Assembly (NCBI GenBank): GCA_964472085.1
Contig: CAYYIW010000003.1
Span: 2,893 to 66,892 of the forward strand
Reading direction: 5' to 3'
Length of the DNA: 64,000 bases
Origin: an uncultured Rikenellaceae bacterium
GTDB taxonomy: Bacteria; Bacteroidota; Bacteroidia; Bacteroidales; VadinHA17
Below are positions 56,346-63,851 of this stretch, one piece after another. A program made the translations under genes and the position numbers. The notes under the pieces are model-generated. The model made no database searches. It saw only the letters and a list, made by a program, of their open reading frames with translations, and was not told the origin of the DNA. The stretch's first letter is position 1; each line of letters opens with the position of its first letter.

Positions 56346-58718
56346 CTATTCTGTCCTTACTGAACTGGCAGGATTGGTTATGGCTGCCTGGTATGCTTTA
56401 TAACTGATCGTAATGAAAGTTATAAGTATGGTCAGCAGCGATGATACTATAAGCAGGGTAATGCTTATATTGGTCCTGTAAACATAGTTCTCGAGCCAGT
56501 TGCTCATGAAATAATATGACACCGGAACCGCAATGATAATACCAATTATAATAAGAACCAGGAAATCCATGGAGATAAGTCCCAGGATAGTACCTTCACT
56601 GGCTCCGAATACTTTTCGTATACCTATCTCCTTTGTCCGTTGTTCTACCATATAGGAAGCAAGCCCGAACAGTCCAAGGCAGGCTATCAGGATAGCAAGG
56701 ATAGTAAATATTGTAAAGATCAGTCCACGTTTCTCATCAGCTTCAAACTGCCTGTTAAACCTTTCGGTAAGATAAGTATAGGTGAAAGGCTGGTCGGGGA
56801 AAACCTCGTTCCATTTTGATTCGATGAAGGAAATGGTTGATTTTGTGTCTTTGCCGCTAAGCTTTATATAGATAATATTGTTCAGAGGACGCCATATAAG
56901 AAGTAGTGATTCAATCCCATTGTACATCCCGGTCTGATGATAATCCTTCATGACTCCAATTACCCTTGCACGTATTGTATTGGCATCTCCAAGTTCAACT
57001 TTTTTACCAATTGGCTCCTGCCATGCCATACGGTTTACAAATGTCTGGTTAACAATTACACCTGTCAGAGTATCTGAAGGCATATCTTTCTGGAAATTAC
57101 GGCCTTCATCCATTTTGATGCCTAAAGCATCAATAAAATCATAATCAACGACTGCGAAATTGACCCCTTTCTGTACCATCCCCTGGTCGGTCTCTACATT
57201 AAATATAACTTTTCCGGATCCTTCTCCAATAGGGGTGTTTGTGGATGTAACATACTTGATATTAGGGTTTTCAAGCAGCGTCTCTTTTAAGACAGGGTAT
57301 TTTCTTGCCATCCTCTGGTCATTAAGCTGAAGACCAATAACATTAGTCTGGTCAAATCCCTGGTCCATATTTTTCATATAATTTATCTGCTTATATACTA
57401 CCAGGGTGCAGATAATCATGATAACAGAAACAGCGAACTGGGTTACAACAAGGATTTTACGGAACAGGCTTCCGGCCGACCCCTGTGTTATTTCCCCTTT
57501 CAGTACTGTTACCGGACTAAACCTTGACAGAAAGAATGCCGGGTAACTGCCACCTATTATTCCTACTATTATGATAATGCCCAGGATAGTGAGCAGAAAC
57601 ACGGGACTATAAAGGATATGCAGATCGAATGATTTACCTGCAAGCAGGTTGAACTTTGGCAGAAGTACAATAAGGAGGATGGTACTGAGAATAAGTGACA
57701 AAATTGTAAAAAACGATGATTCTGAGAGGAACTGCAGGATAAGGGGACCTCTTCTCGATCCTACAACTTTGCGCAGTCCGACTTCCCTGGCTCTTCTGGT
57801 TGACCTTGCTGTTGCCAGGTTCATATAATTCATTGCCGCAATAAGTACAAGGAACAAGGCCACTATAGCAAATATATATACATAGGTGATGCTTCCTGTC
57901 GGTTCTGGTTCATTGGCGTTTGTTGAATAGAGATGTATCCTTGTAAGTGGTTCGAGGATATATTCTATCTTGATATTCATAGGACCGAAAATAGGCTTCA
58001 TGTATTGCTCATACATTCCCTGTATCTTTGTTTCAAAAGGTTTAATATCGAAATCCGGAGGGAAAAGCAGGTAAGTGAACACACCGAAATTGCCCCAGTT
58101 TCCAAGTTGTTTCGGGAGATTATTCCTGGCTGCCAGGGCGTCGTACCTGAAATGTGAGTTTGTGGGAATATCCTGGATGACACCGGTTACCTCATATGTG
58201 TTTGAACCGGCTGTAAGAGTTTTGCCGATAGGATCCTCTTTACCAAAGTACTTGTTGGCAACCTTTTCGGTAAGGATTATTTTATTTGGTTCGCGAAGAG
58301 CCGATTTCACCTCTCCTTTGAGGACCTTAATGGTAAAAATGTCAAATAAGGTGGAATCAACAAAAAAGAAATTATCCTCATTGAATTCTTTATCTTCATA
58401 TTTGTAAAGAGCCCTGGGCATATTAATAAACCTCACGAATGATTCGACCTCCGGGTAGTCTTTAACAACCTGGGGCCCGAAAGGGATTTGTGCAACATTC
58501 CAGGTAAACTGGTCATCCGGTTCAGTAATTTTTGATGATACCCTGTATATTCTGTCGGCATTAGTGTTATAACGATCGTAACTTATCTCATCAGCAACAT
58601 AAATTATAAGGAAAAGGGCGCTTGTTATTCCCAGGGTAAGACCCAGTATATTGAGCAGGCTGTATCCGATATGCTTTGTGATATGCCTGAGGGCGGTTTT
58701 GAGGAGGTTTTTCAGCAT
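56346..58718 (-). CDS. MacB/FtsX-like ABC transporter permease (duplicated, ~790 aa)
   Basis: MLKNLLKTA start, NILGLTLG, NYMNLATARS..RAREVGLRKVVG, RTKEIGIRKVFGA. Confidence 0.92.
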   Translation of the reverse strand: MLKNLLKTALRHITKHIGYSLLNILGLTLGITSALFLIIYVADEISYDRYNTNADRIYRVSSKITEPDDQFTWNVAQIPFGPQVVKDYPEVESFVRFINMPRALYKYEDKEFNEDNFFFVDSTLFDIFTIKVLKGEVKSALREPNKIILTEKVANKYFGKEDPIGKTLTAGSNTYEVTGVIQDIPTNSHFRYDALAARNNLPKQLGNWGNFGVFTYLLFPPDFDIKPFETKIQGMYEQYMKPIFGPMNIKIEYILEPLTRIHLYSTNANEPEPTGSITYVYIFAIVALFLVLIAAMNYMNLATARSTRRAREVGLRKVVGSRRGPLILQFLSESSFFTILSLILSTILLIVLLPKFNLLAGKSFDLHILYSPVFLLTILGIIIIVGIIGGSYPAFFLSRFSPVTVLKGEITQGSAGSLFRKILVVTQFAVSVIMIICTLVVYKQINYMKNMDQGFDQTNVIGLQLNDQRMARKYPVLKETLLENPNIKYVTSTNTPIGEGSGKVIFNVETDQGMVQKGVNFAVVDYDFIDALGIKMDEGRNFQKDMPSDTLTGVIVNQTFVNRMAWQEPIGKKVELGDANTIRARVIGVMKDYHQTGMYNGIESLLLIWRPLNNIIYIKLSGKDTKSTISFIESKWNEVFPDQPFTYTYLTERFNRQFEADEKRGLIFTIFTILAILIACLGLFGLASYMVEQRTKEIGIRKVFGASEGTILGLISMDFLVLIIIGIIIAVPVSYYFMSNWLENYVYRTNISITLLIVSSLLTILITFITISYKAYQAAITNPASSVRTE

Positions 58719-58804
58719 GATGATTGGGTTTGTTTTATTCAAATTTATTATTTATTGTCTTTACAAAATAATAGTCATCACAAATTAACAATGCATTAAC
58801 AGTG

Positions 58805-60814
58805 TTATTTTTCTTCAAGTACCTTTATGTCATCAAACCAGGCAACACCCTGGCCCGGCATGGTTAAGACCATGTTTGTCCTGAATCCGGCAATACTGTC
58901 ATCAGGAACAGTCACAAAAGTCATGTACTGCTTCCAGGTTTTTCCCGGAACAAACCGGGCCTTTCCGAAGTTTCCCAGGCTTATTTCGACATACTGCGGT
59001 TCATCTTTTTTATGTAATAGACGATCATTTTTCTTTTTAGTTACAACGGAAAACCTTTGTTCCGGGTCCGATTTGGCCCATAACGATATCACATATGTTG
59101 TCCCGGATCTGACTTTGAATGGAAAGAACCTGACCGTTACTCCCTTGTCCTGTTCGGGTGTAACCAGTCTTAAGGAATGATTGCCTGAATGATGCTCCCT
59201 TGTGTCCAGGAAAAAGGTGGCACCCCTGTCTCCTCCGGGTCTGGCATAACATGCTGAAGGGACTCCCGGGGTGGAAAGATCTTCAAATCCCGGATCCTGC
59301 AGAAGGTTTTCCTTACCTGCAGCATCAGATGTTATGTTATTGCTGGTACTGATTATATATACTTTTGACCCGTAAGGGGATATCTGATCAGAGATGATAC
59401 CACCACTGATGGCTATTTCCCTGTTCTCAAATAGTACGGTGGCTTTTCCAAACCGGAAGCCTTTGATCCTTATAGAAGCATTTACCGGGGAGTTGGACCT
59501 GTTGACAGCCATAACCGCCAACTGCCCATTATGCGTTCTTGATGTCACAATGATGTTGGGGGAGTATGAAAAAACAGGATATGAATCTTCATCTGACAGA
59601 AGCCATGGGGTCAGCTCAGCAACCTCAGTGGCAATCCGGCTACATTCATCCCACGATGAAACGGATTTTGGAAAATAATTAGGTCCCTGCCTGACAAAGT
59701 ATTCAATCCCTGTGGCTCCTCTGATTATTGATTGCCATGTCATTGATCGTATTTCCTGCGGAGTGGGTTCCCTTTCCCATATCTCACCTCCTCCGAATGT
59801 CTGTGGTACGATCCATACAGGATTCTTTCCAATGAATTCATCCTTAAGCTGATTTGTTACATTACCAACAAGAGAAACAGGAAGTCGTGGAACAGGATAT
59901 GGATCAGCCATTACTATATCGAGTGCATCAGCATAATCCTGTGCCGTGATGAAAGGAGCCATGAATACGATTGAGACAGGATGGTAAGGATCCGTCTTCT
60001 TTACCGTTTCATAGATCTCTTTCAGCTTTTCAGGGGGGGTATCGTATCCGTTAGGCTCGTCTGATATGTACCATCCAAGAAGAGCTGGATGATCACGGAA
60101 AGCCTCAATCTCTTTTATAAGACGTTTACGTTTTTCCTGTTCTGTGATACCATCGATCTTCGATCCCACGCCACCTCCACCTGATACCGACAGCAGGTTG
60201 TAATTAACCTTAAGTCCCAGCTGTGCACACCTGTCCATATAAGCTTTCCGTTCGACAAAAGTCTCCGGAAGTATCTTCTGGTAGGGTGAGATGAAATTAA
60301 ATCCTCTTACAACCTCCTGTTCAGGTAAGGCAGGATCAATAGGAGTGTAGCAATAAAAGCCAAAAGGGAAAAACTGTTTCCTGTTAACGATCAAACCTCC
60401 GGTTAGCCTGTCAGTCTTTACCTCATTGGATTTATAGGCAAGTACCGGGAGATCCGTTCTGGCCTCATAAATTATACCGGAGCGCCATGGTACGGTTATA
60501 CGTGCTTCCACAGCATGTACGTCCCTTGAAAGATCTATCTTAAACGGAACTCTGAGGATGGTTTTTCCTGAGCTGATCCTGAGCGAATCATGCAGTTCAT
60601 CATCAATATATATCTTAATGGTCATATTACTTCCCCTGAAACCTGCAGGGATATGAAGCAAAAACTCACCCTCTGTCTCGAATGTATAGAAACTTAACCT
60701 TGGATATATGCTGAATCGCGTGGAATCTATCACCTGCCCGGTTAAAACCTGGCCCTGGAATAAAATTATAATAAGCAATAATAGGTGATGTAGTTTCTTG
60801 CACATTTTCAACAT
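58805..60814 (-). CDS. Uncharacterised secreted glycoside-hydrolase-like TIM barrel with C-terminal CBM-like jelly roll
   Basis: Signal peptide, FFPFGFY, HPALLGWYISDEP, DPYP, PVWIVPQTFG, RGATGI; C-terminal NLLQDPGFE...HSGNHSL...AWFDDIKV. Confidence 0.7.
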   Translation of the reverse strand: MLKMCKKLHHLLLLIIILFQGQVLTGQVIDSTRFSIYPRLSFYTFETEGEFLLHIPAGFRGSNMTIKIYIDDELHDSLRISSGKTILRVPFKIDLSRDVHAVEARITVPWRSGIIYEARTDLPVLAYKSNEVKTDRLTGGLIVNRKQFFPFGFYCYTPIDPALPEQEVVRGFNFISPYQKILPETFVERKAYMDRCAQLGLKVNYNLLSVSGGGGVGSKIDGITEQEKRKRLIKEIEAFRDHPALLGWYISDEPNGYDTPPEKLKEIYETVKKTDPYHPVSIVFMAPFITAQDYADALDIVMADPYPVPRLPVSLVGNVTNQLKDEFIGKNPVWIVPQTFGGGEIWEREPTPQEIRSMTWQSIIRGATGIEYFVRQGPNYFPKSVSSWDECSRIATEVAELTPWLLSDEDSYPVFSYSPNIIVTSRTHNGQLAVMAVNRSNSPVNASIRIKGFRFGKATVLFENREIAISGGIISDQISPYGSKVYIISTSNNITSDAAGKENLLQDPGFEDLSTPGVPSACYARPGGDRGATFFLDTREHHSGNHSLRLVTPEQDKGVTVRFFPFKVRSGTTYVISLWAKSDPEQRFSVVTKKKNDRLLHKKDEPQYVEISLGNFGKARFVPGKTWKQYMTFVTVPDDSIAGFRTNMVLTMPGQGVAWFDDIKVLEEK

Positions 60815-61107: not shown

Positions 61108-62983
61108 TTAGTAGCTGTTAACAAGTGAGATTATTTTCAGTTCTTTTTCGAAATCAGCCGGCGTCTCACTTGTTGTACATGTAATTACCTTTGTTTCCCC
61201 TGGAAGAAGATCAAAATAGTTATCGGAGAAGAATCCTTCATGGTCTGTCCTCATGAATACACTTTTAGCGAAACTGTCACTGTTTAGTTCTATTTTATAA
61301 CCTGTGGCTGTGGGAGTTATTTTCCGGTTAATAACAGCTTTGGGAAGATCAAGGTATTTGTAGGCAGTAAAAAAGAAATTGTTGGAAGCGAGTACTTTTT
61401 TACCTTTGATGAGTCTTACATTGCCCATAACTTTTGATGTATCGTTCCCAGCCAGGAATTCCTTTCCCTCTTTGCTGTACAGGAGCTTTGAGGTATTAGC
61501 TCCAATCTTTGCAGGGATGGTCAGTTTCTTTAAAATTTTACCGTTGAAGTCCATAATCCTGAGTTCGGCGCGGGCTGACAGGCTTTTAAGGGAGTCTGAT
61601 ACCATATACAGATTGAGAGTATCCTTATAGTACTGGGGTACCAGTATAACATTGCTGAATGATCTTTTTACCTGGTAGTGCAGGGCTTTCCAGTGATTAA
61701 GATAATCTATGCCGGACCAGGATGCCACGGGCCATACGTCATTCAGCTGCCAGTATAGGGTTACCATTGTGAAAGGCCTGCTTCTCCTGTGTGTTTCGAA
61801 AGCGATCTTCATAACTTCAGCCTGCATTACCTGGCTGACATACAGGTAAGTCTCAAAATCCTTTGGATAATGATAATACATCTTCATATATTTGTCCATA
61901 ACCTGGTTGCCGTTCGAGGCCCGCTGGTGGTACTGCATTATAGGAGACAGATAATTCCAGTCACCCGGTTCGCAGACCGGTTTTAGTTGAGAGCTCGTCG
62001 AGTTTATTATTGCCTTCAGCCAGGGTAGCAGTGAATTCATATACCGGGTGTGCACCCATGCCATTTGGCCACCATAGTGAAGGATGTTCAATTGTTAAAT
62101 TTACCGGAATACTGTTTGACCCTTCACTGAGATTTACCGGGACAGACACTTTATGGGGCGTCTCACTGCCAGTTTTATAGCTCACAGATAATACAGCATC
62201 ATGACCTGCATTTGACTTGATTGCAGCTATTACAGTAAGCCTGGCTTTATTTGCACTTATCTCATTCTGTACTACCTCAATATTGTTTATTGTAGCATCA
62301 TCCCAGGCGCTTATATAAACAGGCCGCCATATGCCGCTTGTTGGAAGTGTCGGGGACCAGTCCCATCCGTACATGTAGGCGGCTTTCCTGGTGTCAGGTC
62401 CGATTGGAGGACAATCAGACGGTGGTCCGGCCATTATCTTTATTCCGGGTCCGAAATCGAAATTATATCCAATGGGAGCTTCAATATTCCATTTGTCCTT
62501 GTGAACAAGACCCATCACAATGGGAGAGTGGAACAGGATACGCAGGTTGTTCTCACCTTCTCTTGCATTATTTTTAATACTTACATTCCAGTCGATAAAC
62601 ATGTTATCTGTTTTGAGGATGAGCTTGTCGTTAAGATATACATCCGCATAGGTGTCAAGACCCTTGAAGTCAAGCTCAATGTTCTGTTTTTCAAGAACAT
62701 CTTTTACGAGTGTAAATGTGTTGGCATATTCCCAGGAATATTTGTCTATCCACTGTACGTTTTTTTCATTATCCCGGTAAAAGGGATCGGGAATAAGCCT
62801 GTTGGCCATAAGATCAGTATGGACGCACCCGGGGACGGTGGCATTATACCATTGATTCGTACCGAATTTATGCATCTTCCAGTTGTCCTTGATCTCAATT
62901 GTGAGATGACTGTTGTTCTGTGCTGTCATTACGGCAGGTGCCAGGAGCAGGAACAGTATTATCAGGGCCGGGTATTTTCTCAT
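61108..62983 (-). pseudogene. GH2 beta-mannosidase with internal deletion and frameshift
   Basis: N-part (62983-61961): signal peptide, VPGCVHTDL, GLDTYA, YGWDW, LWWPNG, KTGLRT, then stop. C-part in another frame: EPGDW, LYWQLNDVWPVASWS, SDNYFDLLPGE. The NNE and SEYG motifs are absent. Confidence 0.85.
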
Positions 62984-63055: not shown

Positions 63056-63667
63056 CTATGCTTTCAGACTCTCATAGAATGCGTCCCACAGGGTAATGAA
63101 AGAACCGGTTATTTCGGTTATTTGTCCTCTGTTCATGATGGTATCAAGGCTTATTCCATTACCGGAAAAAATGAACATTTTTGCCAGTTGTTCCCCTGTC
63201 ATCGATGATTTTATCTCACCCGACTCAAATGCTCTTTCAACCGCCCTGGTCCACTGCTCTAATTCGTATTGTCGTGCCTCCTGTATCTTTTTACGGTATT
63301 CAGGGATCATCCTCAGAGCATCAAAAAGGGGATACAGGTAATTGAAGTCAGGAATACTCTCTTCATCCATACCGGTTTTGCTGTCGGATAATTTCAGCAT
63401 AACCTTTTCCAGGTCAGCTATATGGTCGTGATAAAAACTGTATAACGATTCTTTGGAATAACTGCCGTAATCGAATACAAGCATACGAGTGAAGAATTTA
63501 TCAATAACCTCGAGGAAGAGTGTTTCCTTGGTATTAAAATAATGATAGAATGCTCCCTTGGATAATCCTGTGGTTTCTACTATCTCTTTTAATGTCACAT
63601 CCTTGAAGCTCTTTCCGAGAAACAGTTTCAGGCATTCTACCAGTATAAATTCTTTGGTTGTGATCAT
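63056..63667 (-). CDS. TetR/AcrR family transcriptional regulator
   Basis: HTH KSFKDVTLKEIVETTGLSKGAFYHYFNTKE. ATG at 63667 preferred. Confidence 0.92.
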   Translation of the reverse strand: MITTKEFILVECLKLFLGKSFKDVTLKEIVETTGLSKGAFYHYFNTKETLFLEVIDKFFTRMLVFDYGSYSKESLYSFYHDHIADLEKVMLKLSDSKTGMDEESIPDFNYLYPLFDALRMIPEYRKKIQEARQYELEQWTRAVERAFESGEIKSSMTGEQLAKMFIFSGNGISLDTIMNRGQITEITGSFITLWDAFYESLKA

Positions 63668-63685
63668 AAACCGACCGTTTGGTTT
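63668..63685. promoter_or_regulatory. Putative TetR autoregulatory operator
   Basis: Near-palindrome AAACCGACC|GTTTGGTTT (7 of 9 arm positions match) directly upstream of the ATG. Confidence 0.5.
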
Positions 63686-63851
63686 GTAAATATATATCAA
63701 ATGACAACAAAATACAATGAAACAGCAAAAAAATAACAGCTGCAGAGAGTATGTCTGTTTTTTCTGTGTATCCGGCAACTACTGACGGTACCTTCAAAAC
63801 TCAATCCCTGCAGCTGTTATTATGATATGATTAACTTCCCGCTTAAAATAT

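Follow-up and report, generated by a model that had tools for sequence, protein, structure and literature searches.

A secreted Rikenellaceae protein as a candidate for a new, substrate-assisted glycoside hydrolase family on a clan GH-A-type barrel

In glycoside hydrolases (GH) of clan GH-A, the Asn of the N-E-P motif hydrogen-bonds the 2-OH of the substrate. An Asp-Glu (D-E) pair in enzymes that lack a nucleophile of their own defines GH123 (PMC11087588), and also GH20; together with DUF4091 (PF13320), this pair is a defining feature of GH123 and its sister groups (PMC11087588). No report of a substrate-assisted mechanism in clan GH-A was found in the literature searched. In this study we analysed a window of 64,000 nucleotides from contig CAYYIW010000003.1 of an uncultured Rikenellaceae bacterium, in which the gene at positions 58805-60814 encodes a glycosidase-like protein, P0001. 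A preliminary description of this gene, made from the sequence, had drawn attention to a D-E-P motif and to the apparent loss of the catalytic nucleophile. We read P0001, tentatively and with slightly less than even confidence, as a substrate-assisted β-N-acetylhexosaminidase (HexNAc-ase)-like enzyme that would be a candidate for a new GH family. This candidacy was judged against Pfam, NCBIfam, the PDB sequences and literature descriptions of families up to GH195. None of the new GH families up to GH195 in the literature found fits P0001, and the search for a characterised family member gave only the unrelated GH185, GH148, emNagII (GH20), an M60-like protease, GH189/192-194, GH191 and GH195.

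Fold and predicted active site of P0001

The interval 58805-60814 comprises exactly one open reading frame (ORF) of 669 amino acids, whose location on the minus strand had been left out of the preliminary description. The AlphaFold2 (AF2) model of P0001, built from a 50-sequence alignment of diverse relatives, reached a mean predicted local distance difference test score (pLDDT) of 91.9 and a predicted template modelling score (pTM) of 0.90. It bore out the signal peptide, the Ig-like N-terminal domain, the TIM barrel and the jelly roll resembling carbohydrate-binding modules (CBM) 4/9 that had previously been read from the sequence. The eight barrel strands of the model span residues 151-155, 174-177, 202-206, 245-252, 280-284, 300-303, 333-335 and 369-373, and the motifs FFPFGFY (148-154), WYISDEP (248-254), DPYP (304-307) and WIVPQTFG (334-341) were all located at the residues originally claimed for them. 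When the barrel was compared with known structures by VIA-align, it matched GH164 (6t5o, Z 30.3), GH42 (4ucf, 28.2, and 3tts, 27.7), GH35 (3w5f, 27.6) and GH140 (8t9w, 26.8), and further many GH5 and GH2 barrels. The Z scores over GH164, GH42, GH35, GH5, GH2 and GH140 ranged from 20 to 30, and the identity to the fold matches was 10-19%. The Foldseek matches of the model were all of the GH-A type, and neither GH20 nor GH123 was among the top 50 fold matches. Judged from the model, the barrel is a clan GH-A-type (β/α)8 barrel, which is closest to GH42 in sequence and to GH164, GH42 and GH35 in fold.

At the sequence level, the sole family match was a marginal and partial one to Pfam GH42 (PF02449). 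Residues 265-373 aligned with profile positions 218-335 (118 of the 376 positions) at 25.5 bits, which passes the gathering score of 21 bits, and the profile was matched by 16 of the 50 relatives, at best with E = 2.3e-7. The NCBIfam search returned only a far-sub-threshold glucuronidase fragment, and the PDB sequence matches of P0001 had E ≥ 0.01. The earlier suggestion of an otherwise unclassified carbohydrate-active enzyme is supported by these results. We encountered neither a strong match to an established GH family with a canonical Glu nucleophile elsewhere nor a lack of the TIM barrel, the two outcomes that had been named in advance as speaking against the preliminary description.

The strand-4 motif WYISDEP has its counterparts in GH2 glucuronidases (W-x-x-x-N-E-P), in GH158 (W-x-x-x-N-E) and in GH42 (W-x-x-x-N-E, here WHVSNE), all of which align with it. 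E253, which directly follows the strand 245-252, takes up the strand-4 acid/base position of the clan and aligns with the Glu of the GH2 N-E-P and the GH158 N-E. From these alignments E253 is the predicted acid/base, homologous to that of clan GH-A, and D252 stands in for the clan Asn. The structure prediction proposed in the preliminary description placed both residues at the end of strand 4 and confirmed the barrel.

On strand 7, where clan GH-A enzymes carry the nucleophile carboxylate, P0001 has the non-acidic sequence V-W-I-V-P-Q. A phmmer search of residues 262-420 alone against the PDB gave no match. We therefore mapped strand 7 with a sub-profile of residues 286-412 derived from the 50 relatives, and its PDB matches were GH42 enzymes only (3tts, 6.7e-4; 9ta3, 7.3e-4; 1kwg, 1.3). 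In these alignments the P-F-M-L-M-E-Q, P-F-L-L-M-E-Q and F-W-V-M-E-Q of 3tts, 9ta3 and 1kwg stand opposite the P-V-W-I-V-P-Q of the family. Since E312 of 1kwg, the GH42 nucleophile, aligns with Pro337, the GH42 nucleophile site corresponds to Pro337 in P0001, and the counterpart of Gln338 is the Gln located directly after the nucleophile in GH42 (M-E-Q versus V-P-Q). Thus, the assignment of Gln338 to the nucleophile position in the preliminary description was off by one residue, and its conclusion that the site lacks a carboxylate stands despite the shift. The mapping rests on PDB sequence alignments because no GH42 gene was found at E ≤ 1e-40 in 80 genomes of the class. On strand 6, P0001 and GH42 have D-x-Y-P in common (the equivalent of the "D-N-Y" of GH42), and the strand-6 Tyr of GH42 contacts the nucleophile.

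The conservation of these positions was counted in 50 representatives reaching down to about 27% identity. On strand 4, D252 was kept in 48 of them, E253 in 49 and P254 in 48; on strand 6, D304 and Y306 were each kept in 48. On strand 7 and in the loop behind it the counts were 46 for P337, 49 for Q338, 47 for E344, 47 for W346, 48 for R348 and 44 for E349. When about 130 representatives were compared, only P, L, A, G and C occurred at position 337, and neither D nor E. E344, the only conserved carboxylate near this site, was replaced by S, H, G or Q in the full-length members P0155 (found on two independent contigs), P0212, P0241 and P0251, which keep D-E-P, D..Y and P-Q. D252, E253, Y306, D304, Q338, W346, R348 and R375 hardly varied, even in relatives with only about 30% identity, and in the loci sampled this held for no fewer than two phyla (Bacteroidota and Cloacimonadota).

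Of the candidates tested in one search, more than 1,320 scored E ≤ 1e-3 as relatives, and the 50%-identity representatives, which were searched exhaustively, yielded 245 clusters at E < 1e-30. Near-identical copies of the gene were present in at least eight salt-marsh metagenome runs, and several runs contain the stretch almost completely. No RNA run was listed among the sequencing runs that contain it, which carries no information on expression. Contigs from samples other than the source covered the gene at ≥ 99%, the only differences being K272R, A101T and two synonymous changes. Because of these relatives, clusters and metagenome copies the gene is not a chance ORF. As far as the model and the comparisons indicate, P0001 is a genuine secreted enzyme that folds well, belongs to a large family outside the present classification and has a predicted active site of non-canonical composition.

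Proposed mechanism and its alternatives

In the mechanism that we propose, catalysis would proceed without a protein nucleophile, by neighbouring-group participation on a β-linked 2-acetamido sugar. D252 would polarise the N-acetyl group of the substrate, which would then attack C1 to form an oxazoline/oxazolinium intermediate; E253 would serve first as the acid and afterwards as the base, and Y306 would steady the acetamido oxygen. This would be a solution of the GH20/GH84/GH123 type, with its Asp-Glu-Tyr constellation, on a GH-A scaffold; the role of the CBM4/9-like domain would be to keep the enzyme anchored to its glycan. The enzyme probably removes N-acetylhexosamine sugars from glycoprotein glycans. 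Such a mechanism is plausible, and the conserved D-E pair, the non-acidic strand-7 site, the replaceable E344, the N-glycan/HexNAc-type surroundings of distant members and the C-terminal module that longer relatives have in common with a GH20 hexosaminidase speak for it indirectly. With slightly more reserve, we consider it possible that P0001 represents the first GH-A-type (GH42-like) barrel in which the strand-7 nucleophile was abandoned and Asn-Glu became Asp-Glu, converging on the GH20/GH84/GH123 mechanism, and that the family would form a new CAZy family of β-N-acetylhexosaminidases or endo-HexNAc-ases, with which Bacteroidota, Cloacimonadota and other bacteria would degrade N-glycans and glycoproteins.

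The substrate class was approached through gene neighbourhoods. For this purpose 80 loci were taken from species-representative genomes, ORFs were called, the neighbours were clustered and the recurrent clusters annotated. The genes of members with 36-46% identity form runs on one strand together with GH18, GH20, GH92, GH38, GH29, GH2 β-galactosidase, GH2 β-mannosidase-like, GH3 and GH97 genes. Their other same-strand neighbours encode Asparaginase_2 (the glycosylasparaginase family), an S37 peptidase, sulfatases and a trio of a major facilitator superfamily (MFS) transporter, a nucleotidyltransferase and an APH-fold kinase. These neighbourhoods are a toolkit of N-glycan/glycoprotein breakdown and amino-sugar salvage, and such N-glycan-type arrangements recur in five or more distinct lineages, among them Cloacimonadota, Chitinophagaceae and the clade that is sister to that of P0001. 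Judging from these distant family members, the substrates would be HexNAc-containing glycans derived from N-glycans or glycoproteins. The conserved barrel residues are identical in the clade of P0001 and in the members from N-glycan loci, with systematic differences only at positions 131, 134, 277 and 288; therefore the chemistry of the catalytic centre should carry over to P0001.

Several observations weigh against a substrate-assisted HexNAc-ase. Some of these loci also contain GH20 genes, of which this genome has four, so a HexNAc-ase role could be redundant. The clade of P0001 itself lies outside the N-glycan loci and has a GH127-like gene as its neighbour, β-L-arabinofuranosides being the substrates of the GH127 enzymes characterised so far. 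Moreover, the adjacent GH2 β-mannosidase-like gene is a pseudogene, the evidence from neighbourhoods is guilt by association, and an Asp preceding the acid/base could equally bind a 2-amino group.

Among the alternatives, a classical Koshland retaining glycosidase would require that the nucleophile had moved into the loop between strand 7 and helix 7 (E344 of F-G-G-x-E-x-W, or E349 of R-E-P) and that D252 were a specificity residue only. Both Glu residues are well kept in the representatives (47 and 44 of 50), the loop aligns with the "V-N-W" loop of GH42, which in 1kwg lines the -1 subsite, and the glycine-rich turn could fold a Glu back over strand 7. Nucleophiles are usually conserved as strictly as the acid/base, yet several full-length members with all other motifs intact have S, H, G or Q in place of E344, E349 varies too, and the change of Asn to Asp at position 252 would be left unexplained. 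This variability weakens the case for a relocated nucleophile, which we rate as unlikely. An exo-glycosidase for 2-amino sugars (GlcN/GalN), acting after a deacetylase, would likewise draw on a loop Glu as the nucleophile, with D252 binding the protonated amine, and an acidic residue at position 252 would indeed suit an ammonium group. The archaeal chitin pathway combines a deacetylase with a GH35-type glucosaminidase; the locus of the 46%-identical P0125 contains genes for a PIG-L-family deacetylase, SIS and ROK proteins, and the GH35 exo-glucosaminidase 5gsm was among the fold matches (Z 23.3). However, the association with PIG-L was seen in one locus only, known glucosaminidases retain the strand-7 nucleophile, and the variability of E344 counts here as well, so that we rate this explanation as very doubtful. 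We give only marginally more credit to participation of the 2-OH group through a 1,2-anhydro-sugar, as in GH99 endo-α-mannosidases, or another non-classical route. Here O2 would be deprotonated by D252 and E253 would supply the acid, the substrates being mannose-type residues of N-glycans or mannans. The barrel without a nucleophile, the position of D252 where the clan Asn contacts O2, the mannosidase-rich neighbourhoods (GH92, GH38, GH2 β-mannosidase-like), the GH164 β-mannosidase as the best fold match and a weak GH99 Pfam match in one of the 50 relatives would all agree with it. Set against these are a probability of 8% in hhalign versus a genuine GH99, the lack of an NEWHE motif, the GH99-like character described for GH195 and a D-E geometry that is that of HexNAc-ases; to our knowledge, such chemistry has no precedent in GH-A either.

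That P0001 is a catalytically dead glycan-binding pseudo-enzyme would account for the loss of the canonical nucleophile and the presence of a CBM, and some Bacteroidota loci do encode inactive GH-like binding proteins. Nevertheless, the near-invariance of the eight residues named above in members of two or more phyla, including those with only about 30% identity, the occurrence of only conservative variants in the population and the operon positions among enzymes make it highly improbable. The least credible explanation is an ordinary GH42 β-galactosidase. It could appeal to the Pfam match above the gathering score (25.5 versus 21 bits), to the 16 of 50 relatives that match and to the relative P0047, which is named "beta-galactosidase"; it is already contradicted by the residue mapping, with Pro in place of the nucleophile Glu and Asp in place of the Asn of N-E. 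Furthermore, the match spans only 118 of 376 profile positions, the trimerisation and C-terminal GH42 domains are absent, and the identity to GH42 structures is 13-19%.

If a substrate-assisted HexNAc-ase is the correct assignment, a large family (hundreds of 50%-identity clusters from sediment, peat, digester and gut bacteria) would have an unrecognised activity in the turnover of glycoproteins and N-glycans. It would also represent a natural mechanism switch inside one clan, in which the residue reading the C2 substituent changed from Asn to Asp and the nucleophile was lost. A new CAZy family would follow, annotations as "hypothetical protein" or "beta-galactosidase" would be corrected, and linkage-specific HexNAc-ases for glycan analysis might become available. 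Overall, the family can credibly be put forward as a new GH family in which the mechanism may have switched inside clan GH-A.

Locus, family and gene neighbourhoods

Positions of the features of P0001 and of the genes downstream of it in the window
Feature	Positions	Strand	Basis or remark
Whole ORF, 669 amino acids (P0001)	58805..60814	minus	Glycosidase-like, secreted, with several domains; family unclassified
Signal peptide region, residues 1-26, MLKMCKKLHHLLLLIIILFQGQVLTG	60737..60814	minus	Read from the sequence; AF2 helix 3-24 at low pLDDT
Ig-like N-terminal β-sandwich, residues 35-124	60443..60712	minus	AF2 strands
(β/α)8 barrel, residues ~125-412, clan GH-A-like	59579..60442	minus	AF2 and fold searches
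D252-E253-P254, C-terminal end of strand 4	60053..60061	minus	Alignment to clan GH-A N-E(-P) motifs
D304-P305-Y306, end of strand 6	59897..59905	minus	MDIVMADPYP aligned to MDVVSWDNYP of 3tts
Strand 7 and loop, W334-I-V-P337-Q338-T-F-G-G-G-E344-I-W346-E-R348-E349	59768..59815	minus	GH42 alignments and family comparison
Post-barrel β-sandwich, residues 414-489	59348..59575	minus	AF2 strands; weak Pfam Malt_amylase_C / GH30C-like matches
C-terminal CBM4/9-like jelly roll, residues 505-669	58808..59302	minus	AF2 and profile matches
MacB/FtsX-type permease gene, 798 amino acids, TTG start	56346..58742	minus	62 nt downstream of the glycosidase gene
GH127-like cysteine-glycosidase gene, 689 amino acids	53986..56055	minus	Pfam GH127 catalytic and middle domains, E 1e-14 to 1e-16

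No lipobox Cys follows the hydrophobic core of the signal peptide in residues 1-26. The C-terminal jelly roll was matched by the family profile to the CBM4-type structures 1gui (E = 7e-9) and 1k42 (E = 5e-8), and the single P0001 sequence matched Pfam CBM_4_9 below the threshold (E = 0.0015; 19.3 versus 25.9 bits).

The best 120 relatives are 61-91% identical to P0001 and mostly about 657-718 amino acids long; where named, they are called "hypothetical protein", and one is called "beta-galactosidase". The look-alikes in the ESM Atlas were all "hypothetical protein" as well and were commonest in Bacteroidota, Lentisphaerota, Planctomycetota and Actinomycetota. P0047, a public record with 63% identity, evidently received the name "beta-galactosidase" through the marginal partial Pfam GH42 match, and, given the missing nucleophile, this name is probably a mis-annotation. 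Many relatives are about 890 amino acids long, and an extra C-terminal CHB_HEX_C/Fn3_assoc/F5-8C module was present in 17 of 50; this module matches the C-terminus of the GH20 hexosaminidase 6q63 (E = 2e-41).

The genome of origin is a 3.97-Mb assembly, 98% complete, with a single copy of the glycosidase gene. Within the set of 80 loci, the nearest relative of the protein (81% identity) is encoded by a Bacteroidales metagenome-assembled genome (MAG). The same genome as that of the window contains, at L001 (G000 contig C11:74469-77879), an open frame of 611 amino acids that matches Pfam GH42 positions 3-140 only, with 35.7 bits, and that may be a second atypical GH42-like protein.

For members with 50% identity or more to P0001 (from Bacteroidales/Rikenellaceae MAGs), 44 loci had a sufficiently long flank, and in 39 of these the GH127-like gene lies downstream on the same strand. 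Its product in the window is distant from characterised GH127/GH146 enzymes (4qjy, E = 1e-12), and the Zn/Cys catalytic site is preserved in it as E-x-C and A-C-C-x-x-N. The MacB/FtsX permease gene separates the glycosidase and GH127-like genes in 15 related loci, and the window has the same order. This permease is stand-alone, with no adjacent ATPase gene; in other members of the clade the two glycosidase genes are directly adjacent. In a maximum-likelihood tree, all GH127-paired members fell into one clade (46 rows, SH-aLRT 100), which implies that the pairing is essentially one inherited event. The region of the pair otherwise shows housekeeping synteny, and the GH127-like gene was found in none of the 17 members at 36-46% identity. 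In this genome, the glycosidase and the GH127-like cysteine glycosidase would together make up a conserved unit of two enzymes at work in salt-marsh sediment.

Two members of the clade (L049 and L050) lack the GH127-like partner and have instead a convergent GH78 α-L-rhamnosidase gene downstream, a hint that the clade of P0001 may act on plant-type glycans. Many members of the clade (L039, L038, L040, L041, L051, L053 and L077) have genes for an ECF sigma factor and a TonB_C-domain protein immediately upstream, on the same strand as the glycosidase/GH127-like pair, which suggests ECF/anti-sigma control of the clade loci. Upstream in the window there are instead a TetR-family gene (63056-63778, minus) and a GH2 remnant, and the closest relatives have divergent Reg_prop/Y_Y_Y sensor kinases. 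The GH2 β-mannosidase-like gene just upstream (61108-62983, minus) is broken, its remnants being two overlapping ORFs of 340 and 327 amino acids in different frames. Relative to the ortholog in L010, it has lost residues 212-467, which make up the core of the catalytic barrel. This deletion is real and not an assembly error of the MAG, because contigs of three salt-marsh samples other than the source bridge the junction gap-free. A scan for sigma-70 promoters and terminators gave counts equal to those in shuffled sequences, Bacteroidota promoters lying outside the coverage of the scan. The loci L063, L067, L071 and L056-L058 carry compact same-strand sets of MFS, NTP-transferase and APH-fold kinase genes or cytidylyltransferase/GHMP-kinase fusions, and these sets and fusions resemble anomeric-kinase/nucleotidyltransferase modules of amino-sugar salvage.

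Comparison with known glycoside hydrolase families

By sequence, P0001 is closest to GH42 (3tts, 9ta3, 1kwg/1kwk, 4ucf and 5xb7; β-galactosidases/α-L-arabinopyranosidases), with which it has in common the barrel (Z 26-28), the W-x-x-x-[ND]-E of strand 4, the D-x-Y-P of strand 6 and the Q after the catalytic position of strand 7. Membership in GH42 was rejected because of the partial profile match, Pro337 in place of the nucleophile Glu and Asp in place of the Asn of Asn-Glu in 48 of 50 representatives. Pfam matches to the Glyco_hydro_42M trimerisation domain and to the GH42 C-terminal domain were found neither in P0001 nor in the 50 relatives; in the model, a β-sandwich directly follows the barrel. 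Characterised GH42 enzymes are mostly cytoplasmic; unlike them, P0001 is predicted to be secreted and has an extra N-terminal β-sandwich and a C-terminal CBM4/9-like domain. The barrel and the following domain are best matched by the GH164 β-mannosidase Bs164 from Bacteroides (6t5o; Z 30.3 over 345 residues, root-mean-square deviation 3.6). GH164 uses classical two-Glu retaining machinery, whereas the strand-7 Glu is absent from P0001; the identity is 13%, and GH164 gave no match in the PDB sequence searches.

The likeness to GH20 (BT0459, 6q63; emNagII) lies in the (β/α)8 barrel, the adjacent Asp-Glu at the end of strand 4 (D252-E253 in P0001), the lack of an enzyme nucleophile (the strand-7 site of P0001 being non-acidic) and the co-occurrence of GH20 with the family in N-glycan-type loci. 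Unlike GH20, which belongs to clan GH-K, P0001 has a clan GH-A-like barrel and no GH20b N-terminal domain. GH20 membership was rejected, since neither PF00728 nor PF02838 matched P0001 at E ≤ 0.1 or the 50 relatives at E ≤ 1e-3; the PF00728 model did find four other genes in this genome. With the GH123 β-N-acetylgalactosaminidases and their DUF4091 sister groups, for which substrate-assisted catalysis has been inferred, P0001 has the N-terminal β-sandwich, the (β/α)8 barrel and the D-E motif in common (PMC11087588). It differs from GH123 in giving no sequence match and no top-50 fold match, and these groups were rejected because DUF4091 was matched neither by P0001 nor by the 50 relatives.

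GH99 and GH195, the latter described as GH99-like (PMC13063451), were likewise rejected. In a comparison with P0272, a genuine GH99 (PF16317) from a related genome, hhalign returned a probability of 8%, and P0001 has no N-E-W-H-E motif. The likeness to these families is that they are nucleophile-less (β/α)8 enzymes acting on N-glycans or mannans by neighbouring-group participation; the participating group in GH99 is the 2-OH, in contrast to the acetamido group that would take part in catalysis by P0001.

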